In this document: positions 10,714-50,007 of the stretch, piece by piece | Numbering within the stretch: the stretch's first letter is position 1 | How the letters are laid out: the number at the start of each line of letters is the position of its first letter | Source: Terriglobales bacterium | GTDB lineage: Bacteria > Acidobacteriota > Terriglobia > Terriglobales > Acidobacteriaceae | Length of the DNA stretch: 64,000 nt | Reading direction: 5' to 3' | NCBI GenBank assembly: GCA_036558645.1 | Contig: DATBFG010000016.1 | Span: 21,537 to 85,536, forward strand | Position numbers and translations under genes: made by a program | Notes under the pieces: model-generated | What the model saw: the letters and a program-made list of their open reading frames with translations, nothing else | What the model was told of the DNA's origin: nothing | Database searches by the model: none

Positions 10714-13700
10714 GTGTGTTGGGTGCGTTGCGCTTTCGGTTTCTTCCTTGCGGGTCTCACTGTTTTCGCTTCTTTTGCTCACGGACAGAGTTCGCCTGCC
10801 GTTCTACCTTCATTGCCCGCTGGCGCAAGTCTGACTTTGAGCGACCTCGCAATCTCCTCAAACGCGGAACAGAATGTCAGTCTCGTTCAGGACAACTCAG
10901 GTATCAACCTACAAACGAATTCCGGAAAAGCGGACATCGACGTTATCCAACACATTGTTTTCATCGTTAAGGAAAACCGCACATTCGACAACATGTTCGG
11001 TGCAATGAAACTGACCAGACCCGACGTGAATGGGGCCACGACCGGCCTTCTATCAACGGGACAGGTGATCCAATTAGGGCGATCCCCTGATGCCCTTCCG
11101 AGAGACCTCGGCCACTCATGGTGGGACACTTTGACTTCCATGGACTACGGCAGGATGGACGGATTTGATCTGGTCCAGGAAAACCCGGTTCAGTGCAGCA
11201 TCGAAGGCGATCTACTCTGCTTTACACAGTATCAGCAGGAAGACATTCCTAGTTACTGGACACTCGCCACGTACTTCACACTCGCCGACAACATGTTCAG
11301 TTCAATGCATGCGCCGAGTGTTCCTAACCACGCTTTTACCGTAGCAGCGCAGGCCGGCAACATGATGTCTGAGACCCATAATCCTCTCGACCCAACAGAT
11401 CGCCCCGCGGCTTGCGCGGACGCCGGACCTGGGGCAACGGTAAGAGTTCTGGACTCCCGCGGCAATGTTGAGGAAGTCTTCCCCTGCTTCGACTTTCTGA
11501 CCGTAGGAGACACACTGAACAATGCGGGTATCAGTTGGAGAACGTATGCACCAAAAGGATTCGGATGGAACGGCTTTGTCTCCGTAAATCACATCCGCAA
11601 TACAAACCAGTGGGCGATCCATAATGTCAACGACAGCATTGTCGACAACGTGTTTGCTCGCGATGCCGCTGCTGGCAATCTTCCAGCGGTGACGTGGTTA
11701 GTCAGCGAGGGCGGCTTCTCTGACCATCCGCCGTGGAGCATCTGCGAGGGCGAAAACTGGTTAGTCAGACAGATCAGCGCAGTAATGAACGGGCCGTTAT
11801 GGAATTCGACTGCCATCTTCCTGACTTGGGATGACTTTGGTGGATTTTACGATCATGTATCCACGCCGATGGTGGATGCCTTTGGATTGGCGCCGCGCGT
11901 GCCATTGATTGTCATTTCCCCATATGCAAAGCCTGGCTATGTCTCACACACACCTTATGAGTTCGCATCGGTGTTGAAGTTCATCGAGAAGCGCTTTGGG
12001 TTGCCACCTACCAATCAACTTCCTATTCATGATGCGGACCCGAGTCTAAGCGATCTGGAGGACGCTTTCGATTTCAATCAGAGCCCCCTGCCGCCTCCGT
12101 CAAATTTCGCGGAGAGACAATGTTCGCCGGTCTCGACGGCGTCGCTGAAATTTCCTCCAGCAAATGTCGGGCAAAATGGTGCAAACCGGACGGTCACAAT
12201 TGGAAATTATGACATCGCGAAACCACTCACGATCTCTTCTGTGGTTTCGAGTGGCGATTTCAGCGTGGTCAACCAAGGATGCACGCAGCTGCCTCCGAAT
12301 AGAGGACGGCCTTTTACTTGCAACTTGCTCGTTACTTTTACACCAACTGCGCTCGGGACGCGTGGTGGAAGCATCACCATCACCGACAACAATCCCACGA
12401 GCCCTCAAGTCGTGAGCCTTTCCGGGATCGGCAGTAGTCTTTCTCTGTCTCCCAGTCTATTGACCTTTGGAACTCAAGTCGTTGGCACGACTAGTTCAAG
12501 ATTACTCGCACAGCTCACCAACAACGGTTCCGGTGCCGTCACGATAAGTAGCATAGCTGGAAATTCTGCTGACTATAAGGTGAATACAAACTGTCCCAGG
12601 CCCGGAACATTGGGGCCTGGCCAATCCTGTAACCTAGGAGCCACGTTCACCCCTACAGCCGCAGGGACTCGCTATGGAACCGTCACGGTCGTGAGCAACG
12701 ATCCCGCCAGCCCTACGGTGTTGGGGCTTACTGGAATTGGAACTCAGTTGACAATTTCACCTACGAATCTAAATTTTCCTGCTCAGCCCGTTGGTACAAC
12801 GAGTTCGCCACAAACGCTGACCTTTACAAATGAAGGTTCGAATCCAGTGACTGTGAGTAAGGTCGTAATCTACTCGAGCCTGATACCGCCTGTAGGTCCC
12901 CGTGTCTTGCTAAATGAGCCCAGCCCCGAGTTCGCACAAAGCAACGATTGCGGCAGCACGATTGCAGCTGGAGCGAATTGTACGTTTCAAGTAACTTTCG
13001 CGCCCAACACAATTGGAGCACGAGGTGCTGAACTCATCATGACCGACAGTGACGCTGATAGTCCGCACGTCGTCCTGCTCGATGGAGCCGGCACTCGGGC
13101 CTTGTCAAATGCCGTACCCTCGATTGGCCAGCCCTTGGTACCAACAGCTGTTGCTCCCGGTTCACCAGGGTTTATGTTGTCCGTGAGTGGTCTGAACTTT
13201 CTACAAGGTGCTGTGGTTCAGTGGAACGGAACTGCGCTGCCCACCACATTTGTAAATAGCGATCGGCTTTCGGCGATGGTTCCCGCGGCGAATCTCACCT
13301 CGGCGCAGACGGCCAACATCAGCATTACGAATTCTGTCCCGGGAGGCCCTACATCGAACGTGTTGCCATTTCATGTTGTCGCTCCCGTCGCGCATGACAC
13401 ATTTGTCAGGTCTGATATTCCAGTCGGTAAAAATCCCAAGTGGATCTCCGTTGCGGACTTCAATTCAGACGGAAAGCTCGATTTAGCTGTCGCCAACTTC
13501 GGTGACAGCACGGTATCGATTCTGCTGGGAAACGGCGATGCTACTTTCAGCCTTAAATCCACCGTGCCGGTTGGAACTGGGCCGACCACGATCACAGTGG
13601 GAGACTTCGATAACGACGGTAGACTCGATCTCGCCGTCGGCAATCAGAAGAGAAATGATGTATCCATTCTTAGAGGGTTCGGAGACGGGACTTTCGTCGC

Positions 13701-14427
13701 CAAGCCTCGATTTCAGAGCGTGCAGCCAACATGGATCGCTACAACGGATTTTGATCAGAATGGAACGCTGGATCTCGGCGTTGCAAATAACGTCAGTCCC
13801 TCGGTTTCAGTATGGTTGGGCAACGGGGACGATACGTTTTATCAGATGTCGACCCCGCCTGTCGGCCGCCCAGGCCCAGTCTCGCTCTGCACAGCGGACT
13901 TCAATAGCGATGGGACACCGGATTTTGCAGAACTCAATAGAACCGACAAGTCCGTCTCTATCGCGCTGGGAGTTGGCGATGGAACTTTCACCGCTGCTTC
14001 TCAAAGACCTGCAACGGGCTCAGAACCAGCGGCAATGATTGCCGCAGATCTCAATGGTGACGGCAAGGCCGACATTGCGCTGGTCAACAAAAATGATAAT
14101 TCTGTGGAAATTCTGCTTGGCTTGGGAGATGGAACGTTCCTGCCGAATCCAAGTCTTGCTACGGCGGCTGGACCTGCGTCACTCTCAGTTGGCGACGTCA
14201 ATGGAGATGGCAACATCGATCTCGTAACAGTCAATCAGACGGCGAATAGTGTCTCCGTATTTCTTAGCGACGGAGATGGGACGTTCCAGGCAAAGCGGGA
14301 TGTTTTGGTAGGTAGAGGGCCAACCTCTGTAGGAGCGGGAGATTTCAACCAGGACGGCACACTTGATTTCGTAGTCACAAACGGCAGCGCCAATACAATC
14401 TCGATTCTGTCGCAGATTGCGCGCTGA
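10714..14427 (+). CDS. Multidomain secreted protein: phosphoesterase (PLC/AcpA-family) domain, about 4 Ig-like 'choice-of-anchor D/HYDIN-like' modules, an IPT/TIG-like module and about 7 FG-GAP/VCBS repeats
   Basis: [17 protein letters not shown] and [18 protein letters not shown] mark the phosphoesterase domain. The blocks ...[14 protein letters not shown]...N.P.SP.V..L.G.G are repeated 4 times. FG-GAP/VCBS repeats such as [30 protein letters not shown] and [14 protein letters not shown] follow. Signal peptide present. The start is GTG at 10714, or GTG at 10723 with GAGG 8 nt upstream. Confidence 0.85.
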
Positions 14428-14494: not shown

Positions 14495-15430
14495 CTACTG
14501 CCGTGCAACGCCTCCAACGCTGGCATACCAGTCGTAGGTTTCCTGTAGTGCTTGTTCCAACGAGTAGCGACATGTAAATCCGGTCGCGCGCAGGCGACTC
14601 ACATCATAGGCGCGGAACAGGGCACCATTCGGCATGCTGGCATCCCAAGTCACACGCTCCTCCATGCCAGTATGGTTAGCAAGGATGTCAACCACATCTC
14701 GTATCCTTCGCGAAACGCCGCTGGCCAAATTAATCGGACCCGTCACGTGATCCATGATCGTGTATAGGGCGCGTACTGTGTCTTTAATGTATAGAAAATC
14801 ACGATAGGCTGACCCGTCACCCCACACGGTAACACTGGTCTTATTCTTTTTCGCGTCGTAGAACTTTTTCACCAGCGACGGAATGACGTGTCCTGTTTCG
14901 GTGTTGAAACGATCATGCGAGCCGAAAAGATTGGTACTGAAGACAAAGGCATAGGGCATTCCGTAACTGTTCTCGTACGTTTGTAGCTGCGCTAGCATCC
15001 CGCGCTTGGCCTGAGCGTAGCCGTACTCTGAAAAGTGCGGCGGTCCCTTCCAGACGTCCTCTTCAGAAAGTGTCACCCCTGCTTCTATGTCTGGATACAC
15101 GGCGATGCTGCCCATGGCTACAACTTTCTTGACCGCGAACTGGTAACACGCATCAATCACATGCGTGTTGATGAGTGTATTTTTCAAGTAGGCTTCACCC
15201 TGGTTTTGCATGATTCCCACAATTCCGCGCACGAATCCGGCCATGTGGAAGACGTAATCGGGTGAATTTTGGGAATAGTAATCCTGGACAGCTTTTCGGT
15301 CCGTGAGGTCACATTCCGACGAAGTGGGGGTCAGGACGCGGGTAAAGCCATGCGACAACAAGTAGTCCTTGAGATGAATGCCCGCGAGGCCAGTACCACC
15401 CGTGATCAAAATCGTGTCATTGCCATTCAT
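14495..15430 (-). CDS. fcl: GDP-L-fucose synthase-like NAD(P)-dependent epimerase/reductase (GDP-4-keto-6-deoxymannose-processing enzyme)
   Basis: Extended-SDR fold with ILITGGTGLAG and YGYAQAK (YxxxK). About 311 aa from the internal ATG at 15430. Same strand and locus as gmd. The exact product (fucose versus another 6-deoxyhexose) is not determinable from sequence. Confidence 0.6.
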   Translation of the reverse strand: MNGNDTILITGGTGLAGIHLKDYLLSHGFTRVLTPTSSECDLTDRKAVQDYYSQNSPDYVFHMAGFVRGIVGIMQNQGEAYLKNTLINTHVIDACYQFAVKKVVAMGSIAVYPDIEAGVTLSEEDVWKGPPHFSEYGYAQAKRGMLAQLQTYENSYGMPYAFVFSTNLFGSHDRFNTETGHVIPSLVKKFYDAKKNKTSVTVWGDGSAYRDFLYIKDTVRALYTIMDHVTGPINLASGVSRRIRDVVDILANHTGMEERVTWDASMPNGALFRAYDVSRLRATGFTCRYSLEQALQETYDWYASVGGVARQ

Positions 15431-15539
15431 GCTCAACGAATCCTTCGCCTGAGATGGTGGTTGAGAGGCTTGTAAATACTTGCGTGATTTCCGTACAAAA
15501 GCCACCGAGGTGTTAGCGCTGTGGACTTGTTCAATCGTC

Positions 15540-16331
15540 TCAATCGAACTTTTTCAGCCCGACCAGCTCTAGCCCGACATTCCATACGAAGATGGGACCA
15601 CACACCAAGTAGCGCCGCCACAAACGCCTGGGCTCGTGGACCAAGCGATAAAGCCATTCGAACCCATTCTCCTGCATCCAGACCGGTGCCTGCTTAAGCT
15701 TGCCAGTATGGAAATCGAAAGCAGCGCCGACTCCTATCATGACTGGAACAGTAAGGCGGTTGCGGAATTCATACATGAACTGGTCTTGTCTGGGAGTTCC
15801 AAGCCCTACCCAAACAATGTCTGGAGCCGCCGACTCAATCGCGCGGGCAAGTATCTGTTTCTCCGATTCGGGCAACGGCCAGACTGCTAATGGGTAAGTA
15901 CCGGCAACGCGCGTTCCGTATTTTCTTTCGCATGTGACCGCTAGCTCTTCCGAAGCCCGGTGGCCATAAAAGAAGTGCCTATATTTCGCTCCGGTCTCAC
16001 GAAGGAGAGTACCCATGACCTCAGGCCCGTATGCCCGCCGGTGAGCGTTCTTAAAACCATGAATGCGTGCCAGCCATTTCATGGGCATGCCATCCATATT
16101 TTTCAAGTCTGCAGCATTGATGATCTCGCGGAGTTTCGGGTCTTTCATCGCCTCGATCATCCCATGCATTCCCATCTGGATGATGTAGCGGGAACAGTCA
16201 CGCTCTTGAATCCAATGATCAATTACCTGCAGGATTTCCGGAATCTGTAGCGGGCTGACGCTCATTCCCAAAACACGAAAAGTTGGGAGAGTTACTTCAC
16301 CCGATTTCGGTATCACGATGCGGCACGCCAT
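15540..16331 (-). CDS. WecB/TagA/CpsF-family (GT26) glycosyltransferase
   Basis: DIVWVGLGTPRQDQFM and VMIGVGAAFDFHTG match the GT26 core. GGAGAGGGA lies immediately upstream of the ATG at 16331. Confidence 0.8.
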   Translation of the reverse strand: MACRIVIPKSGEVTLPTFRVLGMSVSPLQIPEILQVIDHWIQERDCSRYIIQMGMHGMIEAMKDPKLREIINAADLKNMDGMPMKWLARIHGFKNAHRRAYGPEVMGTLLRETGAKYRHFFYGHRASEELAVTCERKYGTRVAGTYPLAVWPLPESEKQILARAIESAAPDIVWVGLGTPRQDQFMYEFRNRLTVPVMIGVGAAFDFHTGKLKQAPVWMQENGFEWLYRLVHEPRRLWRRYLVCGPIFVWNVGLELVGLKKFD

Positions 16332-16555
16332 TCCCTCTCCGGATCTCCGCTCGGAGGTACACATGATTGATTTCGTTAGAACACAGTAAGAGGATTCGCA
16401 CTTTCTGCAAGAACCTTGCAATCAAGATTTTCCAGCGGTGGTTGGGTCCGGGTGTTGGCTCTAGCCTCAGTCAGTTGCGGATGACGCTTCCTTTAAGTCA
16501 AGTGCTTGACCAGTGCTCTATGCTGACTAGCAATTACGGTCTGTCCCTCCTATGC

Positions 16556-17602
16556 CTAGCCAGCTAAAACACCCTGAACAGTTTCACCAACCTTTGCCGC
16601 GTTGAGTTCACGCCGGGCTAAGTCGAGGTCCGTGTTCACCATTTCAATCACAAGGTCTTTCCATGAACTCTTGTGCCGCCACCCCAGCACCTCACGAGCT
16701 TTGGAGCAATCCCCCATCAAAAGTTCCACGTCAGATGGGCGGAACAACGCCGGGTTGATCTTTACCCAATCACGATAGTCCAATCCGACATGCTTAAAGG
16801 CAACGTCGCAAACTTCGCGGATCGAGTGATTCTCGCCGGTCGAAACAACAAAGTCGTCCGGCTTCGGTTGCTGAAGCATCAGCCACATGGCCTCCATGTA
16901 GTCGGAGGCGTGTCCAATATCGCGAAGAGTCTCTATATTTCCCAGCTGAAGTTCCTTCGCTAGGCCCAGCTTGATCCTTGCGACATGAGAAGTAATCTTT
17001 CGGGAGACGAACTCCGGTCCACGGCGCGGAGATTCATGATCGAACAGGATGGCGCTGCTGATAAATAGATTGTAAGCCTCGCGATAATGCCGGCAGAGAT
17101 GGAAACAAGCTACCTTTGAGACTCCATAAGGTGAGCGTGGATGGAAGGGAGTGCTCTCATTTTGAGGACTCGACTGCACTTTCCCGTACATTTCGCTCGA
17201 TCCGGCAAAGCAGAATTTGCATCCCGGAGCAAACTGTTTCAGTGCGGCTAAAAGCTCGTGCGTACCCTGAAGGTTGATACGCATCGTGGAGAACTCATCC
17301 TGAAAAGAGACACCGACAGAGCTCTGAGCCGCCAGGTGATAGCACTCGTTGGGCTGCACGTCTTGCAGAAGTTTGCAGAGGCTAGCGTAACTTTCCAGTG
17401 AAGCTACGTGAAGGTGGAGGTCCGGCAGGAGATGGCGGATTCGCCAGACTCTATGTTCAGGAAGCTCGACTGCAACACGCCGCACCATGCCGTGGACTTC
17501 GTAGCCCTTGGATAGAAGCAGTTCGGCCAGATATGAGCCATCCTGTCCGGTTATACCAATTACCAGAGCGCGGGGTTTCACTTCTCCTCCCTGTTGAAGC
17601 AC
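16556..17602 (-). CDS. gmd: GDP-mannose 4,6-dehydratase
   Basis: ALVIGITGQDGSYLAELLLSKGYEVHGMVRR, PRSPYGVSK, LFDHESPRRG and DYMEAMWLMLQQPKPDDFVVSTGE are near-diagnostic for Gmd. The start is GTG at 17602, or GTG at 17581, which is preceded by GGGAGGAGAA. Confidence 0.9.
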   Translation of the reverse strand: MLQQGGEVKPRALVIGITGQDGSYLAELLLSKGYEVHGMVRRVAVELPEHRVWRIRHLLPDLHLHVASLESYASLCKLLQDVQPNECYHLAAQSSVGVSFQDEFSTMRINLQGTHELLAALKQFAPGCKFCFAGSSEMYGKVQSSPQNESTPFHPRSPYGVSKVACFHLCRHYREAYNLFISSAILFDHESPRRGPEFVSRKITSHVARIKLGLAKELQLGNIETLRDIGHASDYMEAMWLMLQQPKPDDFVVSTGENHSIREVCDVAFKHVGLDYRDWVKINPALFRPSDVELLMGDCSKAREVLGWRHKSSWKDLVIEMVNTDLDLARRELNAAKVGETVQGVLAG

Positions 17603-17880: not shown

Positions 17881-18711
17881 ATGATGTCGCCGTTGCGCAG
17901 GCTTCGCCACCGGATCATGGTAAGCACACCGGCACGGGTCCCTCTGATTTGGCTTCGCCACCGCGGCCTTGACGACGCTGATGCAATCATCGCCTCTTAT
18001 CCCCGTTCGGGTAACACGTGGTTGCGGTTCATGTTGGCCGAACTCTTCAGCGGCCACCCGACTGACTTCGAGAACATAGATCGGATCGTTCCGGAAATGG
18101 GCCTGCAGGTTCATGCGCAAGGAGTTCTGCCGAATCAGGGGAGGCTGATAAAGAGTCACGAGTGTTACCGAACGCAATACAAACGTGCTGTATACCTGGT
18201 GCGCGATATCCGTGATGTGGCGCTTTCCAATTATTCGCGGGAATGTTCGGTGGGGGCACACTTCATGACCTTTGATGAGTATCTGCCACTTTTTTTGGAA
18301 GGCACGACCAGTGGGTTTGGTTCATGGCAACGGCATGTGAGGAGTTGGATCCGAAGTCCGCTCAACGAACGTGGAGCAATGATCATAGTCCGGTTCGAAG
18401 ATATACGGCGAGACCCGGTATACGAACTCTCCCGTATTTTGACTTTTCTGGGATTCCATCATGCAGCATCAGAAATCAACAGTGCGGTCAACAGTAATTC
18501 CCTTGAGAGCATGCGGCGCAAGGAAGATAGCGCAACGAAGGTGCCTGCCGGGAACCACAGCGAGGCGGGAAGATTCGTTCGGACCGGCTCGGTTGGTGGA
18601 TGGAAGAACAAACTGAACGCCGAGCACCTGCAACTGATTGATGAATATGCGGGCGGAGTGCTGAATGAAATGGGATATCCAACCGCACTTGAAGTCCAGC
18701 GTGTGAGCTGA
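17881..18711 (+). CDS. PAPS-dependent-type sulfotransferase
   Basis: 5'-PSB-like YPRSGNTWL and 3'-PB-like VRDIRDVALS motifs. GGAG lies 7 nt upstream of the ATG. Confidence 0.8.
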   Translation: MMSPLRRLRHRIMVSTPARVPLIWLRHRGLDDADAIIASYPRSGNTWLRFMLAELFSGHPTDFENIDRIVPEMGLQVHAQGVLPNQGRLIKSHECYRTQYKRAVYLVRDIRDVALSNYSRECSVGAHFMTFDEYLPLFLEGTTSGFGSWQRHVRSWIRSPLNERGAMIIVRFEDIRRDPVYELSRILTFLGFHHAASEINSAVNSNSLESMRRKEDSATKVPAGNHSEAGRFVRTGSVGGWKNKLNAEHLQLIDEYAGGVLNEMGYPTALEVQRVS

Positions 18712-18760: not shown

Positions 18761-19951
18761 TCAGAAATTCGCTGCTCGCTCAACAGTCTCTTCTGAATCT
18801 GCAACTTTAACCTTTCCCTTTCGGTTAAAGACATCTTCGTAAACGTCGAGAAGTTGCCGGGCAGACTCAATCCAAGAAAATTTCTGAACCTGTTGATAAC
18901 CGGCCTCTTTCAATTTGTTTCTCAGCGGTTGATCGAGTAGAACTCGGTGCAACGCTCGCATAATCTCAAACACATTTTCTGGATTCACCAGGACAGCCGC
19001 GTTACCCACAACTTCCGGCAACGAAGACAGATTCGAGGTGACTACGGGAGTGCCGTGCGCCATAGCCTCAAGTGGCTGCAGCCCGAAGCCCTCGTATAGG
19101 CTGGGAAAGACAAAAACCTTGGCCAGATCGTAAAAAATCCGCAGCACATCTACCGGCACGAACCCCAGGAATCGCACGTCGTTCTGCACTCCGCTGCGGA
19201 TGACGGTACGGCGGAGATCGGGGTGCTTTGACAGCTCGTCTCCGATGATGATGAGTTTTAGATCCTGGTATTTACCGGCTTTTTCCAACTCGCTCTTCAG
19301 AGCAGAGAAAGCCTCAATAATGCGCACCAGATTCTTGTGTGGACTAATGCTACCGGCGTACAAGAGGAACGGATAATTTACCAGGTAACGTTCTGCGATA
19401 AACTGCCGGTCGTTCTGCGTGGTATGCCCACGCAAGAATCGTTCATCAATTGCGTTGTGAATGACCTCGATGTGCTCCCCGGGCAGCTTAAACAGCTTTT
19501 CCACCTCGCCCTTGGTGAAGCGAGACACTGCGAGTACGCGCGCTGCCTTACGCAACACGCGACATGTCAAGAAATACTGAGTTAGGCGTTTGGGCCGGGA
19601 TCGTTGATGTGCCCGATCCATGTGCTCGAGAACATCATGCGCTGTGAGTACATAGGGACAAGGCAGGTTGCGTGGCAGCCAGTATAGATGCGGAATATGC
19701 AGCAGGTCACAATCCAGCCGCTTTAGGATCGACCGGCACCCGACGAATCCCTTGAAAGTCGTATCGGGCTCGACAAGAGTAATCGCCTTGAAATTCGCCG
19801 GCAGCGGGCCGAACTCCTGCAATTTGAGAGGAGATCCGATGAGAACAAAGCTATTGGACTGATCGACTTGGGCCAGTGCGCGCACGATGTTGCGCGTGTA
19901 AGTGCCGATTCCGAATCCTGTGCTACCGCGAATGTCGAGCGCAATCTTCAC
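18761..19951 (-). CDS. Glycosyltransferase family 4 (GT-B, retaining type)
   Basis: C-terminal EGFGLQPLEAMAHGTPVVTS (E-x7-E motif). About 396 aa. GTG start. Confidence 0.85.
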   Translation of the reverse strand: MKIALDIRGSTGFGIGTYTRNIVRALAQVDQSNSFVLIGSPLKLQEFGPLPANFKAITLVEPDTTFKGFVGCRSILKRLDCDLLHIPHLYWLPRNLPCPYVLTAHDVLEHMDRAHQRSRPKRLTQYFLTCRVLRKAARVLAVSRFTKGEVEKLFKLPGEHIEVIHNAIDERFLRGHTTQNDRQFIAERYLVNYPFLLYAGSISPHKNLVRIIEAFSALKSELEKAGKYQDLKLIIIGDELSKHPDLRRTVIRSGVQNDVRFLGFVPVDVLRIFYDLAKVFVFPSLYEGFGLQPLEAMAHGTPVVTSNLSSLPEVVGNAAVLVNPENVFEIMRALHRVLLDQPLRNKLKEAGYQQVQKFSWIESARQLLDVYEDVFNRKGKVKVADSEETVERAANF

Positions 19952-19975
19952 GAGACCGCCCCGTCCGGTTCGAGA

Positions 19976-20728
19976 TCACAGCTTGGTGTTCTCAAGATAA
20001 TGCTTCATTGTGCCGTCTCGGTCCACTAAATACGTGCCGGGTGGAGCAGGAGAGTCCGATGAAGAGATGAGCCGGTCCACGACTTGAGCGACGGCCACGG
20101 GCTCTACATAAGATGAGAAGTCAAAGCCGGCCGGGCGGCGACGCCTAATACCATTGGTAATCAACTGAAATGTGGGGATCAGCTGATAGACCCGCAATTG
20201 GTCACGGGGATGTTCCTCGGCGATGGCGCGCAACAGGGCATGCAGTCCAGCCTTGGACGCGGCGTATGCTGCCCTGCCCGCCCCAGGCAGTACAGCCACA
20301 TCGGACGACAGGTTAACGATGATGCCGGGAGGGTCGGAAAGCAGGTTCTGCAACAACTGCGAGACAAGTATGCAGTGCCCGACACAGTTGGTTCCGATGA
20401 CTTGTTGCCACTCCCGGGCGGAAGTGTTAGCCGCCGGATGTCTTTGATCCGCTCCGTAATCCACCGCACACAATACGACGGCTCGGAACACCATCGTCTG
20501 CAACGTTGCCGCACATTTTTCTATATCGGAAATGTTCGACAGGTCCAATCGATGCCAACCAATGTTATTGAGTTCTGATGGTGATTCTCCTGCGGGCTCT
20601 GGCCTTGTACGGGAGACGCCGACAACACAGTGACCGCTCTGGACCAGGGCGCGTGCAACTGCCCTTCCGATACCATGCGATGCGCCGGTAACTAGCACGC
20701 GGCTAGCAGTACGCGACAGGTTTTCCAA
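19976..20728 (-). CDS. Short-chain dehydrogenase/reductase (SDR)
   Basis: VLVTGASHGIGRAV (TGxxxGxG) and YAASKAGL (YxxxK). The TTG start at 20728 overlaps the upstream stop by 26 nt. The alternative GTG at 20698 would leave only 3 residues before the TG motif. Confidence 0.85.
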   Translation of the reverse strand: MENLSRTASRVLVTGASHGIGRAVARALVQSGHCVVGVSRTRPEPAGESPSELNNIGWHRLDLSNISDIEKCAATLQTMVFRAVVLCAVDYGADQRHPAANTSAREWQQVIGTNCVGHCILVSQLLQNLLSDPPGIIVNLSSDVAVLPGAGRAAYAASKAGLHALLRAIAEEHPRDQLRVYQLIPTFQLITNGIRRRRPAGFDFSSYVEPVAVAQVVDRLISSSDSPAPPGTYLVDRDGTMKHYLENTKL

Positions 20729-21860
20729 GGTTGTCTCGCGAAAAGTCGACGATTGCCTTCACGAACTTCATGCCGTGCCGTCTCTGGTTGCAAAGCATGT
20801 TGGTCACAGCTTCTGGCAATTGCTCCAGCGTGAGGAAGCAATGTGGAAGGTGGCTCTTTGAAACCGCCCCGCTAGAAAGTACTTGAATCGCATCGAGAAT
20901 GTGCCTTTTCGCCGTTCCCCGGTGACCGAGAAGAAACATCGACTTGTTTGTGACACGGTCAGAAATCGTCGTCGCTGGGCTGAAATTAGTACCACAGCTA
21001 TTCTTCCAGCGAACCTGATCGAGGTTCACCTCAGGAATTCGACCTTCTTTGTATTCAGTCGGGAATCCCGCCATCAAATCAATCGTCGCACCGTCCGGGA
21101 GGACGTCCAACAACAAGCGCAGTCCCTCAGGAGCTTCAGCGCGAGAGGAACACAAAATAGCCGCGGTAAGTCGACTGGCTAGCGAGTGCTCGCGAATTGT
21201 GTCCTGCAGATTGGTTGTGCTGCAGATGAACACATTCGCCGGCCAATTTGAGAAGGCACTGAGCCACTCCGCATGTTCTTCTGAACCCGCCACCAGGAGC
21301 ACCGGTGTCGTCATGAATCGGGACCATGCTACAGCTGCCAGGATGCCAATCGTTCCGGAACCCCTTATCAGCAGTCCCGAACCGGCTGAGTTTCGGCGCA
21401 AAAGTTCCAGGCTGTACAACACTGATCCCAAAGGTTCAGCGAGAACTAGCTCTGTGTCTTCGAGCGTACATCCGTCTGGACAACGAACCAGCAATTCTCC
21501 AGTGTCGGCTTCGTTCGCGTTCAACCAGAACCACTCCCGAAGCACACCATCGGAACTGTGGCCGATTACGACACCGGGACGGATACGATGGACAGGATTA
21601 ATGACCACGCGAGTACCGACTGGGATAGGCCAGCCTTCAGGAGCTTGAGCAATCTTGCCGACGCCCTCATGACCAAGGATTTCAGCCTGAACGGCTCGCT
21701 TGCCGGAAAGCATGGCAAGATCTGTCCCGCAAATGCCCACCGATGACATTCGGATCAGGACGTTAGAGTCCTCGATGGATTGGCTCTTGTGCTTCCTTAC
21801 CGCAAGACTGTTATCAGGGGTTAGGCGTGACAGAACTCTATGCTCTGGCACGTTAAGCAC
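20703..21860 (-). CDS. Medium-chain (Zn-type) alcohol/polyol dehydrogenase-like protein without an obvious structural-Zn Cys loop
   Basis: GICGTDL...ILGHEGVGKI and the Rossmann motif GSGTIG. I place the start at GTG 21860, which overlaps the upstream stop in GTGCTTAA. The 453-aa ORF-track version would overlap the upstream gene by about 210 nt. Confidence 0.75.
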   Translation of the reverse strand: MLNVPEHRVLSRLTPDNSLAVRKHKSQSIEDSNVLIRMSSVGICGTDLAMLSGKRAVQAEILGHEGVGKIAQAPEGWPIPVGTRVVINPVHRIRPGVVIGHSSDGVLREWFWLNANEADTGELLVRCPDGCTLEDTELVLAEPLGSVLYSLELLRRNSAGSGLLIRGSGTIGILAAVAWSRFMTTPVLLVAGSEEHAEWLSAFSNWPANVFICSTTNLQDTIREHSLASRLTAAILCSSRAEAPEGLRLLLDVLPDGATIDLMAGFPTEYKEGRIPEVNLDQVRWKNSCGTNFSPATTISDRVTNKSMFLLGHRGTAKRHILDAIQVLSSGAVSKSHLPHCFLTLEQLPEAVTNMLCNQRRHGMKFVKAIVDFSRDNLGKPVAYC

Positions 21861-24153
21861 TCTGCGCAACCTCAAGCGTCTTTCCACCTGACCAAGCCCA
21901 GATGAATCCAAGTGCTTTCTCAAGGTCGGGCTGACTGACCTCATCGATAAATCTCGATTCCCCGATGCCGGATAGCACTGGCATTCGGAGATAGCCTCCG
22001 CGATGCCGTTTCGCTTCGCGCACACCTCGTAGCAACATTTCGATCGACATTCCAGGCCGAACAATCGGCAATCCTAGAACATGCTGGGTAAGGAGGATTT
22101 CTTCTGCATCAGATCGGTCGAGGATGCCAAGCACTACGGCCAGGGCGGTTGCGAAAGCCATGTCCAGGGCGACAGCTTCTCCGTGCTCCAGGTCCGGCAA
22201 TTCGAACTCGAATATAGGACTGAAGGTATGTCCATAATCGGGAAGGCGCGTGAGCGTCCGCTCAAACAAATTTGGAGCCAGTTCAAGTAGCATCGCCTTG
22301 ATCGATCTTCGTATGAGTTCCAGTCCCTTTGCATTCTGGAGCTTTGTACGGATGAGTAAGGGGGCATTTTCTTGAATGAGCCGGAAAAGCTCGCCGTCGG
22401 CTACCAGACCAATCTTCAACGACTCAGACAAGCCATTGCGTATCTGTCGCTCTGAGAGTGTCGAGAGAAAGTCGGGATCTATCACCACCGCAAATGGAGG
22501 GCAAAAGGTCCCGAGCCGGCTCTTGCTATAGCGAAAGTTCACGGCATTCTTAACGCCAATCCCAGCGTCGATGGCGCCGACGAGGGTAGTGGGTATTTTT
22601 AGACACGGTATCCCGCGCCGAAAGAGGTTGGCCGAAAAACCAACGATGTCGAGCGTAATTCCACCGCCCGCTGCGACGATGAGATCTTGGCGCCTTCGTA
22701 CACCCAGCATGTCGAAATGAGAAGCTACTTCGGCAATCGCTCCCAGATCCTTCTCCTTCTCGGAGGCTCGGAGAATGATGGTTTCGACCTGCCGACCCGG
22801 TCCTGCCAGTACTCGTTGCAGACGCTCGCCATAGATGTCGTCTACGGCGAAATCAGAAACCAGAATGATCCGCTCGAAGGGCTCGAGAAGATCCTGCGGA
22901 AAAACACCGTTGCGGCAGATGCCCGGCGATAAGTGGATGGGATAGTCGATCGAGTGCTCGCGCGATACTCTGAATGGAAAATCTGACGTAAGAGTCTCGC
23001 AGCGGTGGAGATTTGGCACCTCGCGCGCAACAGACGCCGCGCCGATCAGGCCCGCATCATCCGAAATCGGCCCAAGTATCACCCGATCCGCCCAGAAAGA
23101 ATCCGTCTCAGACTCTAGCGGGTAATACCCTAACTCACACAGATTCTCGATCACTGACTCCAAATAGGCATCGCGAAGGAAAAAGCACACGCCCCCGGTG
23201 AGAATCAGTTTGTCGAGTTCGGGGTCCAGCATAAAATGCCACTTGGCCGCCTCGGCGATCGGCTGCGTGATTGCTCTGAGGACGGTCTTCGACAACGAAT
23301 CGCCCTTGGCCAGACCGTCCGCTAACCTATCGAGGGAAACATCCGGATCTTCCCCTTTACTCAATACTGAAGCCGCGAACTTAGAGGGAAAAACATCTGG
23401 CAGCTGCTTCAAGACATTCTTGATCCCTTCGCCGGAAGCGAATGCGCTCAAGTGATTCGTGCCTCCACAATCGCATTTCAGCGAAAGTGGCTGTCCGTCG
23501 ATCAAAAAATTGATGGGGTGATGGCCTATCTCACCCTGAACTCCGAGTTCGGCATCAACCGGAACGTGCGGAACTGAGCAATTCAACGTTCGAGATGCAA
23601 TTCCGGTACTAACAGTGATGAGTGAAAGGCGGCGAGCATGCCGCATATCTGGAAGCAACGAGTGGGCTATCAACGAGGCAGTTACGTCGTTCACGATCGC
23701 CACCTGAGCACCCGGTAAACGCTCCTTGATGGCCCGTTTCAGGTCGAAGCAAGCGGAGTTATCGCCGAGAATGGGTCCAGACCCGAGAATCACACCAGTA
23801 TGAGCGTTCATGGCCGCGCCCATCGAAATGGCGATAGCTGGTGGCTGCCTGATCGAAAAGGATTGCGCGGTGCCTGCAATGTAGTCAGCAATCCGGCCTA
23901 GAACTTCGGTGGCGGAGGCGCCCGGCATGGACCTGTGATTTATCGACGGAATTCGTTGTAGCGAGGTCAACCGTCCTTCGCGCGTGAGCAGGGCACTTCG
24001 AAAGGACGTTCCCCCAATGTCAAACGTGGCCACGGCGTTGCCATGACCGAGAGCAACAGGAAACTGTTCCATAGTTGTTCTATGGGGAGACCCAGCCAGA
24101 GGACTGCGCACGATGCGACTCACCAAGACGACGCTGATCTTGGGAGCGAACAT
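21853..24153 (-). CDS. Fusion protein: N-terminal ROK-family sugar kinase and C-terminal 3-dehydroquinate-synthase-like sugar-phosphate cyclase
   Basis: N-terminal half: FDIGGTSFR, NDVTA and GEIGHHP...CDCGGTNHL (ROK Zn motif). C-terminal half: AAGGGITLDIVGFSANLFRRGIPCLKIPTTLVGAIDAGIGVKNAVNF, SESLKIGLV, YGHTFSPIFE and HGEAVALDM (DHQS-like). The domain junction is near nt 22970. The start is ATG at 24153 or ATG at 24072; neither has a clear SD. Confidence 0.8.
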   Translation of the reverse strand: MFAPKISVVLVSRIVRSPLAGSPHRTTMEQFPVALGHGNAVATFDIGGTSFRSALLTREGRLTSLQRIPSINHRSMPGASATEVLGRIADYIAGTAQSFSIRQPPAIAISMGAAMNAHTGVILGSGPILGDNSACFDLKRAIKERLPGAQVAIVNDVTASLIAHSLLPDMRHARRLSLITVSTGIASRTLNCSVPHVPVDAELGVQGEIGHHPINFLIDGQPLSLKCDCGGTNHLSAFASGEGIKNVLKQLPDVFPSKFAASVLSKGEDPDVSLDRLADGLAKGDSLSKTVLRAITQPIAEAAKWHFMLDPELDKLILTGGVCFFLRDAYLESVIENLCELGYYPLESETDSFWADRVILGPISDDAGLIGAASVAREVPNLHRCETLTSDFPFRVSREHSIDYPIHLSPGICRNGVFPQDLLEPFERIILVSDFAVDDIYGERLQRVLAGPGRQVETIILRASEKEKDLGAIAEVASHFDMLGVRRRQDLIVAAGGGITLDIVGFSANLFRRGIPCLKIPTTLVGAIDAGIGVKNAVNFRYSKSRLGTFCPPFAVVIDPDFLSTLSERQIRNGLSESLKIGLVADGELFRLIQENAPLLIRTKLQNAKGLELIRRSIKAMLLELAPNLFERTLTRLPDYGHTFSPIFEFELPDLEHGEAVALDMAFATALAVVLGILDRSDAEEILLTQHVLGLPIVRPGMSIEMLLRGVREAKRHRGGYLRMPVLSGIGESRFIDEVSQPDLEKALGFIWAWSGGKTLEVAQSA

Positions 24154-24435
24154 CGATCAACACACAGGGTGAGACGCGGTTCGGGGGCGGGTTCCCCGAT
24201 TCGGGCCGTAATTTTATGTCGGTCTATTACCAATTGCAACCTAAAATCATTTTTTCTCTCAGATATGTTTCCCATCGTGCGTAAACGTTCTTCGTGTTGC
24301 GGCAATATCTTTGTAGCTCCTTTTATCGGAGTAACTTCAGCAAACATTCTTCGCGTTCTTGGGTATGGGAAGACGACAACCTCGTAAATAAAGCACTTGG
24401 TGATATAGATCGACAGATTGGATCGCTGTCGTCGA

Positions 24436-24621: not shown

Positions 24622-25248
24622 TTGGAGACCCTCAAGCATCTTCTTATTCGCTATACCGCCTTTGTCTGGGGTGTCCTTAAGCCACTGGGATCATGGGCCG
24701 TTTTTGCCATCGCGGGCATCGACTCGGCATTTTTCGGGCTGCCTCTCGATCCCGTAGTCGCTAGTTACGTTTATGCGGACAATTCGCGGTTCTTCCTCTA
24801 CGCAGTGATGGCAGCTGCTGGCTCTGCCGTCGGATGCATCATTCTTTATGTGATCGGCTACAAAGGCGGCGAAGTCCTATTGGCCCGGCGCATGTCCGAA
24901 GCAAAGTTCAACAGGATACGCAGTTCTTTCGACCGGCATGAGTTCTGGGCACTCATGTTTCCGGCGATGATGCCGCCGCCCTTCCCATTCAAAGTTTTTG
25001 TGCTCGCGGCAGCCATATTCGAGATGAATTTCGGACACTTTCTGCTAGCCATTTTCGTGGGACGTTTCGTCCGCTTTCTCCTTCTATCTCTGTTGGTTCT
25101 GCAGTTCGGTCCGCAGGTTGTTGCACTTTCCTCCGAAATGGTTTTAAGCCATTGGATTGTGGTACTTACTGTTGTCGTCGCAATCGGACTCTTGGGGGGA
25201 GGGATCTGGTATCGCTCGCGCCGAAAGAAGGCCATCCAGGCGGGCTGA
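24622..25248 (+). CDS. YqaA/DedA-like (VTT/SNARE-associated domain) inner-membrane protein
   Basis: Multiple TM segments. The motif GLPLDPVV...AAAGSAVGCIILYVIGYKGG is typical of this family. TTG start with no SD, so the start is uncertain. Confidence 0.6.
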   Translation: METLKHLLIRYTAFVWGVLKPLGSWAVFAIAGIDSAFFGLPLDPVVASYVYADNSRFFLYAVMAAAGSAVGCIILYVIGYKGGEVLLARRMSEAKFNRIRSSFDRHEFWALMFPAMMPPPFPFKVFVLAAAIFEMNFGHFLLAIFVGRFVRFLLLSLLVLQFGPQVVALSSEMVLSHWIVVLTVVVAIGLLGGGIWYRSRRKKAIQAG

Positions 25249-31455: not shown

Positions 31456-33627
31456 TTACTTCTTCTCTTTTTTTGTTTGCGGCGCCATCACTTTTCCTCG
31501 CAACACGGTGATCGACGCTTTTGGCAAGGTGTACGTGGATTCGAGTGTCGCACTTAGGGTCAACTTCACTGGCGGTCCGTTCGGTTCGGCGTACCCCCAT
31601 TTGTCGTCGGGATGCCATTGGTATTGCTCGCTGCCGAAGCTGACAACATTAACGATCCCCGCAAATGAGCTTTTGACGCCCGACTTCTGATCTTCGAATG
31701 CAATCTTAACGACGTGCGAATTTTCCTGGTCTTTATTAATCAGCATGACGGACCACTGGCCGTCCGGCCGAGCCAGCGGGTACGCCGTGACAAGCACATG
31801 GCCAGCAGGATCGGTTACATCGCTCTTCGCTCCGAAAACACGATGTTCACCGGTGCCTGGCTGAATCCATTCCAGGTTCATGAGCTGGCTGGCGAAGAAT
31901 TGTGAGGTTGGCTGCTGGATCTCAAAGTTAAGGTTGACGGTGAATAATGCGAAGGTACCCATCGATCCATTGCAGCCATGGTATGAGCCCACCGGTAGGT
32001 AATGAAAATAGTAGAGTCCGTCTCCGCCGGCTGAGAAAAACGATCCGACAAAATCCGCGAGCCACAGTCCGCCGAAGACATCAACGAACGATTGGCCCGT
32101 ATTCCAGGCGACATTCACTTCCGTGATAAACATGGGCATGTCCGCCGGAACTCCGTCTTCGCGCCAGACATCGAGAATGTGACTGATCAGAGTTGGTTCG
32201 TCGTACAAGCTGCTCCACTGAATTTTGCAAGGTTCGTACGGATAATGTTCGAACGACACGAACGAGAGATCCGCCATGCGACCGTGAGCCTTCAAGTAGT
32301 CGATGAATCGTCCGAGCCATGAGGTCTTGCCTTGAGCATCGGGCCAAGTCTGAATGTCTTCGTTCACACCTTCGAAAACAGGTCCGCCAAGTTTCAGGTT
32401 GGGATCCACTCGATGCAGAGCGGTGGCCCACTGCAAGTAGAGCGCACCGTAGTCCTCAGGAAGCATGTACTGGCCGTCCGGTTCCTCCCCCATTTCTATA
32501 TAAGAGATGGGATAGCCGCGAGCCTTTAGGTAGGAGATCTGCGCAGCGGAGTCCTCGGGCGTGGCATAGAGCATGGCCACCGGGATCATCGCAGGAAGCC
32601 CACGAGTGTACCCGCTTGTGTAAAAGAGGTCTAACCCAACCTGATCGCGCTTGTCGTTGATGTCTGTGGGTTCGTGCCAGGGATCGATCGAGGAGCAAAG
32701 GGTTGCGGTCTGGTCCGGATCCGGAGTATGGCGGACGAGGTCGTGCAACTTTCCATCCGGCGAGACGGTGCCAGCGTAGAGTTCTCGAATGGCGTAGCCT
32801 ACGCAATTTCGACGATCGCTGCTGCCGTGACTGTCGCAGGTATTGGACGATTCCGTCATCCATATTCTTATGTAGCGAATTTGCATCGGTGAGACCGAAA
32901 GGTTGAGTACAACCGTACCGCCCTCAGCTTCGTTAACCACGCCGCCCGGAAACGTAACCCAGGCACCCTTAGTCGGTTGTTTGATCGGATCTTCGCCGGT
33001 CCAATATTGGACGATGTAATGAGTGGCATACGGCTCGCCCCAGGCAATTCGAATTGCGTTCAATGCATGGGGGTTGGCGAAATCCACCGTGACCCATTGC
33101 GGGTATGCCGAGTCTTCTTCGCCGGTAAACAACTTGGTGAGGTACGGATTGCTCTTCCAGTACGTATTCATGTCGCCGTCGGTGAGTCGGGAAAATCCGG
33201 TTTCCACGCCATCATTGCGAGTGAAGCCCCGATGAGGAAGAAAATAACCGAAGGAGTGTCGAATCGGTTCGGCAGGAGTTGCGCTGCCTACGAAGTAGCC
33301 TTTGCCTGACGAGTCGCTCCAGGTACCTTGTCCATTCCAGTGCCAGGCCTCGACATGTAACTCAGTATTCTGCCGATAGCTGACCGTTTGCCATCCAGCG
33401 GTCAACACTTTCTGCATGACCGCGTCAGTGAAGAGCTTGTCGGTAGAAACAGTGTTAATGCGATCGATGCCCGCACCCATAGCTTGAGTGGGTATGAACT
33501 TGTTGAGAACGTGGTCTGAAGTGGTGTCTATAGAAATAGTCTGGGCCACGCCACTGCCCGAAATCCCAATCGTCAGGGCAACGCTCGAATGAAACAACAC
33601 TTTTCGGATTCTCGCGATAGCGTACAA
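31456..33627 (-). CDS. Secreted F5/8 type C (discoidin) domain protein with a clan GH-A-like (beta/alpha)8 glycoside-hydrolase-like C-terminal part
   Basis: RLTDGDMNTYWKSNP...VTVDFANPHALNAIRIAWGEPYATHYIVQYW marks the discoidin domain. Candidate catalytic motifs are IEMGEEPDG and MFITEVNVAW, an assignment by analogy only. The TTG start at 33627 has GGAGG 6 nt upstream. Signal peptide present. Confidence 0.65.
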   Translation of the reverse strand: MYAIARIRKVLFHSSVALTIGISGSGVAQTISIDTTSDHVLNKFIPTQAMGAGIDRINTVSTDKLFTDAVMQKVLTAGWQTVSYRQNTELHVEAWHWNGQGTWSDSSGKGYFVGSATPAEPIRHSFGYFLPHRGFTRNDGVETGFSRLTDGDMNTYWKSNPYLTKLFTGEEDSAYPQWVTVDFANPHALNAIRIAWGEPYATHYIVQYWTGEDPIKQPTKGAWVTFPGGVVNEAEGGTVVLNLSVSPMQIRYIRIWMTESSNTCDSHGSSDRRNCVGYAIRELYAGTVSPDGKLHDLVRHTPDPDQTATLCSSIDPWHEPTDINDKRDQVGLDLFYTSGYTRGLPAMIPVAMLYATPEDSAAQISYLKARGYPISYIEMGEEPDGQYMLPEDYGALYLQWATALHRVDPNLKLGGPVFEGVNEDIQTWPDAQGKTSWLGRFIDYLKAHGRMADLSFVSFEHYPYEPCKIQWSSLYDEPTLISHILDVWREDGVPADMPMFITEVNVAWNTGQSFVDVFGGLWLADFVGSFFSAGGDGLYYFHYLPVGSYHGCNGSMGTFALFTVNLNFEIQQPTSQFFASQLMNLEWIQPGTGEHRVFGAKSDVTDPAGHVLVTAYPLARPDGQWSVMLINKDQENSHVVKIAFEDQKSGVKSSFAGIVNVVSFGSEQYQWHPDDKWGYAEPNGPPVKLTLSATLESTYTLPKASITVLRGKVMAPQTKKEKK

Positions 33628-47968: not shown

Positions 47969-47983
47969 CCTGATCAGTGGGAT

Positions 47984-49930: not shown

Positions 49931-50007
49931 GAGATGCCACGATTATAGCGCAGCTGAAACCCGCCATTTTGCGGGAGAAGCTAGTGTTTATGCTAGTCTG
50001 AGGTGAC

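Follow-up and report, generated by a model that had tools for sequence, protein, structure and literature searches.

The present analysis concerns a group of four minus-strand genes in a 64,000-nucleotide stretch of the genome of a Terriglobales bacterium of the Acidobacteriaceae (contig DATBFG010000016.1; the whole stretch is hereafter the window) and the C7-cyclitol that these genes may produce. Open reading frames (ORFs) and Pfam domains place at this locus, in order, a ROK kinase fused to a 3-dehydroquinate synthase (DHQS)-like cyclase (21853-24153), an AcbL-like, zinc-type medium-chain dehydrogenase/reductase (MDR; 20703-21860), an AcbN-like classical short-chain dehydrogenase/reductase (SDR; 19976-20728, adh_short E 3e-30), and a family GT4 glycosyltransferase (18761-19951, Glyco_transf_4 and Glycos_transf_1, E 7e-36) that is the last operon gene in the lineage of the window. 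The fusion and MDR overlap by 8 nt, the MDR and SDR by 26 nt, and 24 nt separate the SDR from the GT4, so that the close packing described in the first-pass annotation is borne out by the ORFs. The fusion has 766 residues as the longest ORF, with a conserved start at the ATG at 24072 (M28) that gives a protein of 739 residues and is shared by the NCBI call and all relatives; the MDR has 385 residues according to the gene call on identical public contigs, its longest ORF extending to 22064. Proteins of the window are identical to Terriglobales proteins HEY7095825-31 from a metagenome-assembled genome (MAG), for which PGAP provides only generic names.

A sigma-70-like promoter (TTGCAA-17-TAAAAT, 24211-24239, minus strand) precedes the fusion and is conserved. 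Its motif (TTGCAA-17-TAnAAT) was the only near-invariant block in an upstream alignment of 10 loci, one of which (L005) has a degenerate -35 element, and by strict regular expression it was found in 18 of 40 relatives. The promoter is followed by a short GCCC-N4-5-GGG hairpin; together the two elements (24190-24239, minus strand) stand at the start of a fusion leader of approximately 130 nt and are shared with many relatives. Conservation of the promoter supports the ATG at 24072 as the true start and shows that the cyclitol operon is a transcription unit of its own. A generic scan of the window for promoters and terminators was not enriched over shuffled sequence, and only the promoter conserved in relatives was kept; an Rfam scan of the window returned no match.

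The cyclase occupies the C-terminal part of the fusion (approximately residues 400-766), where Pfam identifies DHQ_synthase (PF01761, 459-572, E 4e-30) and DHQS_C (PF24621, 574-715, E 2.5e-19). The domain fell short of the cutoff of the AroB equivalog TIGR01357 (206.9 bits; cutoff 305) and of that of NF004852 (196 bits; cutoff 333). When all PDB sequences were searched with phmmer, the best match was to ValA (4P53), an EEVS (synthase of 2-epi-5-epi-valiolone), with 265 bits, followed by desmethyl-4-deoxygadusol synthase (DDGS; 5TPR) with 171, DHQS with at most 143, and 2-deoxy-scyllo-inosose synthase (DOIS) with 96. Structural comparison gave the same top match, in that an AlphaFold2 model of the whole fusion, built from an alignment of 54 sequences (pLDDT 88.6, pTM 0.70), had ValA as its first Foldseek match (E 1.9e-36) with a target-normalised TM-score of 0.95, compared with 0.84 for DDGS. 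Leu267, Asp281, and His360 of ValA, which Kean et al. (2014) and Osborn et al. (2017) reportedly identified as discriminating EEVS from DDGS, all map onto the 4P53 chain with a common 6-residue offset. At these three positions the window and 47-48 of 48 Terriglobales sequences have L/D/H, as opposed to E/A/T in AvDDGS and V/N/V in one DHQS. At the positions that align to the metal and substrate sites of ValA, DDGS, and DHQS, the Lys, Asn, Glu, and His residues were invariant in 48 of 48 sequences. Identity as AroB was considered and rejected, with scores below the cutoffs of both TIGR01357 and NF004852 and with Asp replacing the DHQS Asn at the ValA-281 position. On sequence and model comparison, the domain is an EEVS-type sedoheptulose-7-phosphate cyclase other than AroB, and its initial assignment as a DHQS-like sugar-phosphate cyclase stands.

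The N-terminal part of the fusion, approximately residues 40-380, is a ROK domain (Pfam ROK 44-378, E 8.6e-19). Its DxGGT (ATP), ExGH, and CxCGG..H (zinc) motifs are invariant in aligned fusion homologues, and Pfam detected no DNA-binding (helix-turn-helix) domain in this part of the protein. Because the motifs are kept and a DNA-binding domain is lacking, the domain looks like a sugar kinase, predicted to be an AcbM-like C-7 kinase. It is 26-28% identical to ValC-type kinases, versus 33-38% to the kinases of cyclase-ROK-MDR-SDR cassettes. The domain architecture initially assigned to the cassette was confirmed by Pfam, with ROK, DHQ_synthase, and DHQS_C in one protein and ADH_N, adh_short, and GT4 domains in the others. 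The fusion itself was found in approximately 100 protein clusters (at 90% identity), which argues that it is not an artefact of assembly. Most fusion homologues were from Terriglobales, with 59-73% identity, and a second tier with 32-40% identity came from an Ideonella MAG and, in DNA-level matches, from Streptomyces and Nocardia as well as from one MAG each of Streptosporangiaceae and Saccharibacteria.

Proteins of the window were mapped onto 78 genome and 53 metagenome loci, among which were 41 non-redundant loci of the Terriglobales type, 25 of them with sufficient downstream sequence and 16 well flanked (at least 5 kb upstream and 7 kb downstream). In all 25 evaluable Terriglobales loci the fusion was directly followed by the MDR and then the SDR; the SDR also follows the MDR in cassettes from Agrobacterium, Streptomyces, Serratia, and Saccharibacteria, and the MDR always followed either the fusion or a ROK gene in the cassettes surveyed. 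The presence of the three genes together in 25 of 25 loci and the recurrence of the enzyme set across phyla put the arrangement far outside what chance would give. The two nearest relatives (L147 and L148), in which the fusion is only 70-72% identical to that of the window, both have the order fusion-MDR-SDR-GT4, with GT4 identities of 80% and 84%, respectively, and L147 has in addition a convergent sulfotransferase with 67% identity. Co-conservation of the cassette thus extends without exception to the fusion, MDR, and SDR and only in part to the GT4, which occupies the same position in these two closest relatives. A search for further recurrent neighbouring ORF families, such as a hidden epimerase or phosphatase, found only antisense shadow ORFs and a 111-residue membrane protein.

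The MDR was recognized by Pfam through ADH_N only (E 2.6e-10). The catalytic zinc residues Cys44, His64-Glu65, and Glu142 and the GxGxxG motif are invariant across phyla, as is a GHRGT motif specific to the family, and Arg and Lys residues that are also conserved could, judging from the alignment, bind phosphate. Many MDR orthologues are named "2-epi-valiolone-7-phosphate 1-reductase" in JGI annotation, the name of the step that KEGG assigns to AcbL. By analogy with acarbose biosynthesis, the MDR is predicted to be a cyclitol-7-phosphate dehydratase yielding a valienone-7-phosphate-type product, and the SDR, which has the TGxxxGIG and YxxxK motifs, is predicted to be an NADPH-dependent enone reductase yielding a valienol-7-phosphate-type cyclitol. 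In the acarbose pathway, AcbC makes 2-epi-5-epi-valiolone, the ROK-type AcbM phosphorylates C-7, AcbO epimerises C-2, the MDR AcbL dehydrates the product to valienone-7-phosphate, and the SDR AcbN reduces this to valienol-7-phosphate (PMC7081202, PMC9200736). Both the acarbose cluster of Actinoplanes sp. SE50/110 and the Terriglobales cassette comprise an EEVS-type cyclase, a ROK kinase, an MDR zinc enzyme, and a classical SDR. They also have in common the gene order kinase-MDR-SDR, which in the acarbose cluster is acbM-acbL-acbN. Unlike the acarbose cluster, the Terriglobales cassette belongs to an acidobacterial host, joins kinase and cyclase in one polypeptide, has a cyclase only 42% identical to ValA-type EEVS, and lacks the 2-epimerase AcbO; the window also lacks the AcbU/AcbJ/AcbR activation to GDP-valienol, the aminosugar genes, and the AcbI/AcbS transferases, and the partners of the cassette are instead GT26, GT4, GDP-mannose-modifying enzymes, and a sulfotransferase. 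Genes for activation, aminosugar formation, or pseudo-glycosyltransfer were found neither in the window nor in the annotated flanks of Terriglobales relatives. For the 2-epimerase, whether of the AcbO type or the ValD/CetB type of the vicinal oxygen chelate (VOC) family, the domain search of the window found no VOC/glyoxalase and no sugar-phosphate isomerase/epimerase domain, and there was no candidate among ORF families recurring beside the cassette. Equating the enzyme set with the early steps of acarbose biosynthesis, as was done at first, is therefore right for the cyclase, ROK, MDR, and SDR families and incomplete for the pathway, which also needs AcbO. Without this enzyme, the 2-epi (manno-like) configuration may be retained in the product.

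The combination of cyclase, ROK, MDR, and SDR recurs in Streptomyces, Nocardia, a Serratia MAG, a Saccharibacteria MAG, an Ideonella MAG, Agrobacterium vitis, and Streptomyces clavuligerus. On plasmid pRvVAR031a of A. vitis VAR03-1 (L142, 503-512 kb) the order is cyclase-ROK-MDR-SDR-sugar phosphate isomerase/epimerase-major facilitator superfamily (MFS) transporter-MDR; the S. clavuligerus cassette is on a megaplasmid together with aminotransferase, HAD, and VOC genes; the Ideonella cassette lies amid three extended-SDR enzymes of sugar-nucleotide type; and a NUDIX gene accompanies the cassette of the Saccharibacteria MAG and a phosphomutase (PGM/PMM) that of a metagenome contig. These uncharacterised cassettes have the same core genes and order as the window, several of them with the same ROK-cyclase fusion, but are 27-44% identical to it and differ in their accessory genes. 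Recurrence in so many lineages suggests that the cyclase-ROK-MDR-SDR module is widespread and portable with variable downstream chemistry, and the presence of cassettes in A. vitis, Ideonella, and other lineages runs counter to the view of the first-pass annotation that such pathways are confined to actinomycetes. The A. vitis cluster includes a LysR regulator and adjoins an IS21 element, in a strain used for grapevine biocontrol.

Among characterised systems, validamycin biosynthesis provides the best sequence and structure match for the cyclase (ValA) and likewise uses a ROK kinase on a C7-cyclitol, but loci of the valA-valB-valC type place a nucleotidyltransferase between cyclase and kinase, and the window lacks the VOC epimerase ValD, an aminotransferase, and a pseudo-glycosyltransferase. 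The S- and K-clusters of Burkholderia leaf symbionts, which were compared by description only, are also cyclitol clusters with EEVS and ROK enzymes in a Gram-negative host (bioRxiv 10.1101/2022.09.27.509721; PMC8599487). Streptol glucoside from the S-cluster is a precedent for a non-aminated cyclitol glycoside, the K-cluster producing kirkamide; unlike the window, these clusters have a HAD hydrolase and aminotransferases and encode unfused proteins. A second type of C7-cyclitol cluster within the Acidobacteriaceae, validamycin-like, was seen in the MAG of an uncultured Bryocella sp. (CAXTBJ010000026.1, L021:9731-20215). It begins with an EEVS that has 65% identity to ValA; next come a ValB-like nucleotidyltransferase, a ROK kinase resembling ValC, and an RmlD-like reductase, and then a glyoxalase/VOC protein of two domains that resembles ValD, a GT2, a 2OG-Fe(II) oxygenase, and a GT4-like protein, and L032 and L038 have a similar layout. 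A search of the literature for acidobacterial gene clusters of the EEVS or aminocyclitol kind, or for a ROK-EEVS fusion, found none and returned only the unrelated ebo/EboD cluster.

The GT4 at the end of the operon is a candidate cyclitol glycosyltransferase, not dedicated to the cassette. Its best PDB matches were MshA (62 bits), GlgM, and sucrose-phosphate synthase, at approximately 60 bits each and mostly over the donor-binding C-terminal domain; all three are GT4 enzymes that use small phosphorylated acceptors. MshA, the D-inositol-3-phosphate GlcNAc-transferase of mycothiol biosynthesis, had been proposed as an analogue and is indeed the top PDB match, but the window GT4 lacks the phosphate-binding residues Tyr110, Thr134, and Arg154 of MshA. 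An MshA-like acceptor site was thus rejected, with Thr134 replaced by Asp, Arg154 by Gln, and Tyr110 falling in a gap, and on the NCBIfam MshA model the GT4 reached 78.5 bits versus a cutoff of 462.5, which leaves the MshA analogy unsupported. In approximately 11 loci a GT4 clade is encoded directly upstream of the fusion; the GT4 of the window is on a different branch.

Four genes for sugar modification and transfer lie beyond the GT4. Convergent with it is a PAPS-type sulfotransferase (17881-18711, plus strand, Sulfotransfer_1 E 7.8e-33) that has the PAPS-binding motifs YPRSGNTW and RDxRD and is specific to the sub-lineage of the window, where L147 has its 67%-identical orthologue at the same position. 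On the minus strand are a GDP-mannose 4,6-dehydratase-like protein (GMD; 16556-17602, called start 17581, GDP_Man_Dehyd E 1.7e-110), a GT26 of the WecG/TagA/CpsF family (15540-16421, called start 16331, Glyco_tran_WecG E 2e-49), and an Fcl-like epimerase/reductase of the extended-SDR type (14495-15505, called start 15430), whose best PDB match is E. coli GDP-fucose synthetase with 158 bits. The GT26 and sulfotransferase named as neighbours at first reading were both confirmed by Pfam, and the aminotransferase and nucleotidyltransferase noted as lacking were not found in the 64-kb window; a HAD phosphatase, VOC epimerase, Wzx/Wzy, and a second DHQS-like gene were not found there either. To speak of GDP-fucose genes, by comparison, was too strong. 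The GMD, so named by PGAP, scored 362.8 bits on TIGR01472, just under the cutoff of 415, and the Fcl-like protein scored 193 on NF047922 against a cutoff of 500. The latter keeps the Ser/Tyr/Lys triad and His179 and has Ala for Cys109 of the E. coli GDP-fucose synthase. Cys109 and His179 are presumably the acid-base pair of Fcl, their roles reportedly having been worked out by Lau and Tanner in 2008. Cys109 is absent from all cassette-linked Fcl-like orthologues (26 loci), with Ala in nearly all of them, within the motif G[ST]xA[MVI]YP. Far below the cutoff and with Ala at Cys109, the Fcl-like protein is atypical and its product sugar uncertain, and the cassette-linked enzymes appear by sequence to be a distinct atypical subfamily of uncertain sugar specificity. 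A canonical GDP-L-fucose pathway of Gmd and Fcl was rejected, both proteins being under their equivalog cutoffs and the Fcl-like protein lacking Cys109.

Association of glycosylation genes with the cassette was evident across the 16 well-flanked Terriglobales loci. At least one glycosyltransferase lay within 10 kb in all 16; WecG (GT26) orthologues (56-73% identity) were within 10 kb in 13, in several arrangements, and Fcl-like orthologues (66-76%) were nearby in 14. A 334-residue enzyme, identified as GDP-mannose 3,5-epimerase (GME) by a score of 259 bits to plant GME structures, was also present in 14. The window-type GT4 was found in four of these loci and another GT1-family enzyme in two, and neither the GMD nor the sulfotransferase was found in any of the 16. 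Other lineages thus have GME beside the cassette where the sub-lineage of the window has GMD and the sulfotransferase. Glycosylation genes occurred in at least six gene orders and orientations around the core, and this variety of arrangement argues for selection on clustering. A protein of approximately 111 residues, predicted to have two transmembrane helices and without a match in Pfam, was always just upstream of the cassette-linked WecG, in 16 Terriglobales loci (for example L084:7478-7813, plus strand, and L005:17703-18314, minus strand); the window does not have it.

A pathway may be proposed in which the EEVS-type domain would cyclise sedoheptulose 7-phosphate to 2-epi-5-epi-valiolone, using NAD+ and Zn2+ or Co2+ and with loss of the phosphate, and the fused ROK kinase would re-phosphorylate C-7 in the manner of AcbM, fusion of two consecutive steps possibly favouring hand-over of the intermediate. 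The AcbL-like MDR would then dehydrate this product to an enone of the valienone-7-phosphate type, and the AcbN-like SDR would reduce the ketone with NADPH to give a valienol-7-phosphate-type cyclitol. In a fifth step the GT4, the GT26, or both would join the cyclitol to a GDP-mannose-derived sugar, provided by GMD and the Fcl-like enzyme in the window and by GME and the Fcl-like enzyme in most relatives, and in the lineage of the window the sulfotransferase would add sulfate. Such a route would yield a cyclitol glycoside without amino groups or a surface glycan that carries the cyclitol; as the operon is surrounded by genes for sugar decoration and not by antibiotic genes, this end product is probably one not yet described.

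We consider it likely, by analogy with the acarbose pathway, that the cluster makes a phosphorylated unsaturated C7-cyclitol of the valienol-7-phosphate type, which is then probably glycosylated. The core of the first-pass interpretation is thereby supported, and the products that it proposed are speculative. The two halves of this interpretation differ in strength. That the fusion, MDR, and SDR make a valienol-7-phosphate-type C7-cyclitol is highly probable, and homology, active-site residues, and very strong gene linkage form the basis for the first four steps. That the linked glycosyltransferases, the GDP-sugar enzymes, and here the sulfotransferase convert the cyclitol to a non-aminated glycoside or glycan has about an even chance of being correct, the fifth step being based on gene clustering only. 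Several observations weigh against the interpretation as a whole. Terriglobales cyclases form a deep clade, 42% identical to ValA where ValA and DDGS are themselves 40.6% identical, and in a neighbor-joining tree of 126 cyclase domains this clade was near the base with DDGS within the remainder; the topology is unreliable, given long branches, a single outgroup, and a distance method, with ValA, AvDDGS, and one DHQS as references, and cyclase identity was drawn from pairwise scores and residues with the tree set aside. The references compared (ValA, DDGS, DHQS, and DOIS) do not separate EEVS from 2-epi-valiolone synthase. The SDR is generic by sequence, and the acceptors known for GT26 enzymes are lipid-linked, as opposed to small molecules. 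A 1-kinase, phosphomutase, nucleotidyltransferase, and phosphatase are all missing from the window, and because activation genes are absent there, the route from cyclitol-7-phosphate to a glycosyl donor or acceptor is unexplained. Lastly, orthologues of the GT4 with 71-73% identity occur without the cassette in an alanine racemase...SHMT-GT4 context (SHMT, serine hydroxymethyltransferase) in three of three sampled long contigs, and close GT4 homologues far outnumber fusion homologues; given this housekeeping context, the GT4 and possibly other glycan genes may serve another pathway.

These last points could reflect a cassette whose product is a free or simply dephosphorylated C7-cyclitol (for example a glycosidase inhibitor, signal, or compatible solute resembling valienol or streptol), with the glycan genes belonging to an independent envelope pathway that happens to be nearby. 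Such an explanation, the main rival, is unlikely, though it would fit the greater conservation of the GT4 (80-84%) than of the fusion (70-72%) in the nearest relatives, as for a housekeeping gene, the lack of a nucleotidyltransferase or mutase in the window, and the differing neighbours of distant cassettes (MFS and isomerase in A. vitis, NUDIX or PGM elsewhere). It would not account for the presence of a glycosyltransferase within 10 kb in every well-flanked locus, for the retention of WecG, Fcl-like, and GME genes beside the cassette in six or more rearranged gene orders while the proteins are 60-70% identical, or for the GT4 being packed 24 nt behind the SDR in three lineages, and sugar-nucleotide-type enzymes surround the Ideonella cassette as well. 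The enzyme set is also that of AcbC/M/L/N (PMC7081202), and the Bryocella MAG with its validamycin-like cluster implies that aminocyclitol pathways can exist in the phylum, so that the cassette might be the front end of a C7N-aminocyclitol antibiotic pathway (as for acarbose, validamycin, pyralomicin, or a kirkamide-like product) with tailoring genes elsewhere in the genome. We find this very improbable, as neither the window nor the annotated flanks of relatives contain an aminotransferase, NTP-transferase, trehalose-6-phosphate-synthase-like pseudo-glycosyltransferase, or resistance or export gene, and the conserved partners are GDP-sugar enzymes and GT26/GT4. There is next to no likelihood that the DHQS-like domain is a shikimate 3-dehydroquinate synthase or a DDGS for a gadusol or mycosporine precursor, as generic database names ("3-dehydroquinate synthetase") and the DHQS fold might suggest; the AroB score of 206.9 is below 305, ValA scores far above DHQS and DDGS, the residues are of EEVS type, and the obligate partners are ROK, MDR, and SDR, with no O-methyltransferase, ATP-grasp, or MT-Ox partner. 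Sequence effectively refutes that assignment. Extending the preferred interpretation of a glycosylated valienol-7-phosphate-type product, Terriglobales could build a C7 carbasugar, possibly manno-configured, into a glycoconjugate, which we regard as quite doubtful. It could be incorporated as the carbasugar unit of a lipid-linked or cell-surface glycan built by GT26 and GT4, or a GDP-activated pseudosugar could be processed by the co-clustered GME, GMD, and Fcl-like enzymes.

Elsewhere in the window are genes for outer-membrane proteins of the TonB type, for sulfatase-TPR and FG-GAP proteins, and for regulators. Divergent from the cyclitol operon is a DedA/VTT-domain membrane protein (24622-25248, plus strand) that is confined to contigs with the identical sequence; no relative showed a counterpart at the same position. 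Approximately 7 kb upstream of the cassette is a 723-residue protein with an F5/8 type C (discoidin) domain (31456-33627, minus strand), orthologues of which (55-56% identity) lie upstream of the fusion at approximately 0.9 kb in L106 and L110 and at 1.1 kb in L119. Three adjacent paralogues with N-terminal sulfatase domains and C-terminal TPR repeats (700, 648, and 628 residues) occupy 45866-51894, and a 904-residue sulfatase follows the cassette in L084. On the other side, flanking the cluster, is a very large secreted phosphoesterase (phospholipase C-like) fused to Ig-like and FG-GAP/VCBS repeats (10714-14427, plus strand); a similar ASH/FG-GAP protein is beside the cluster on the complete Terriglobia chromosome OY970291.1 (L083:20064-22241).

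C7-cyclitols, including acarbose, validamycin, kirkamide, streptol, and gadusol, are potent glycosidase inhibitors, signals, and sunscreens, and most of what is known of their biosynthesis concerns actinomycetes, a small number of Proteobacteria, cyanobacteria, and animals. The present data define a conserved family from Terriglobales, which are abundant and hard-to-culture soil bacteria, comprising approximately 100 protein clusters and 41 distinct loci with a kinase-cyclase fusion and without the usual epimerase and amino-tailoring genes. The fusion enzyme could serve as a compact biocatalyst for phosphorylated 2-epi-5-epi-valiolone. If the product is simply valienol- or streptol-like, a known pathway would be extended to a new phylum. 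Were a carbasugar indeed built into a glycoconjugate, the lineage of the window would have a fucose- or 6-deoxyhexose-bearing sulfated cyclitol glycan. It would be the first case of a bacterial envelope in which a valienol-type carbasugar is used structurally and not as an antibiotic, and carbasugar nucleotide chemistry would gain a new branch. Should the product be a sulfated, glycosylated carbasugar or a surface glycan containing one, both its chemistry and its ecological role would be new, the role possibly being that of glycosidase-resistant sugars of the envelope or of inhibitors in competition for polysaccharides.

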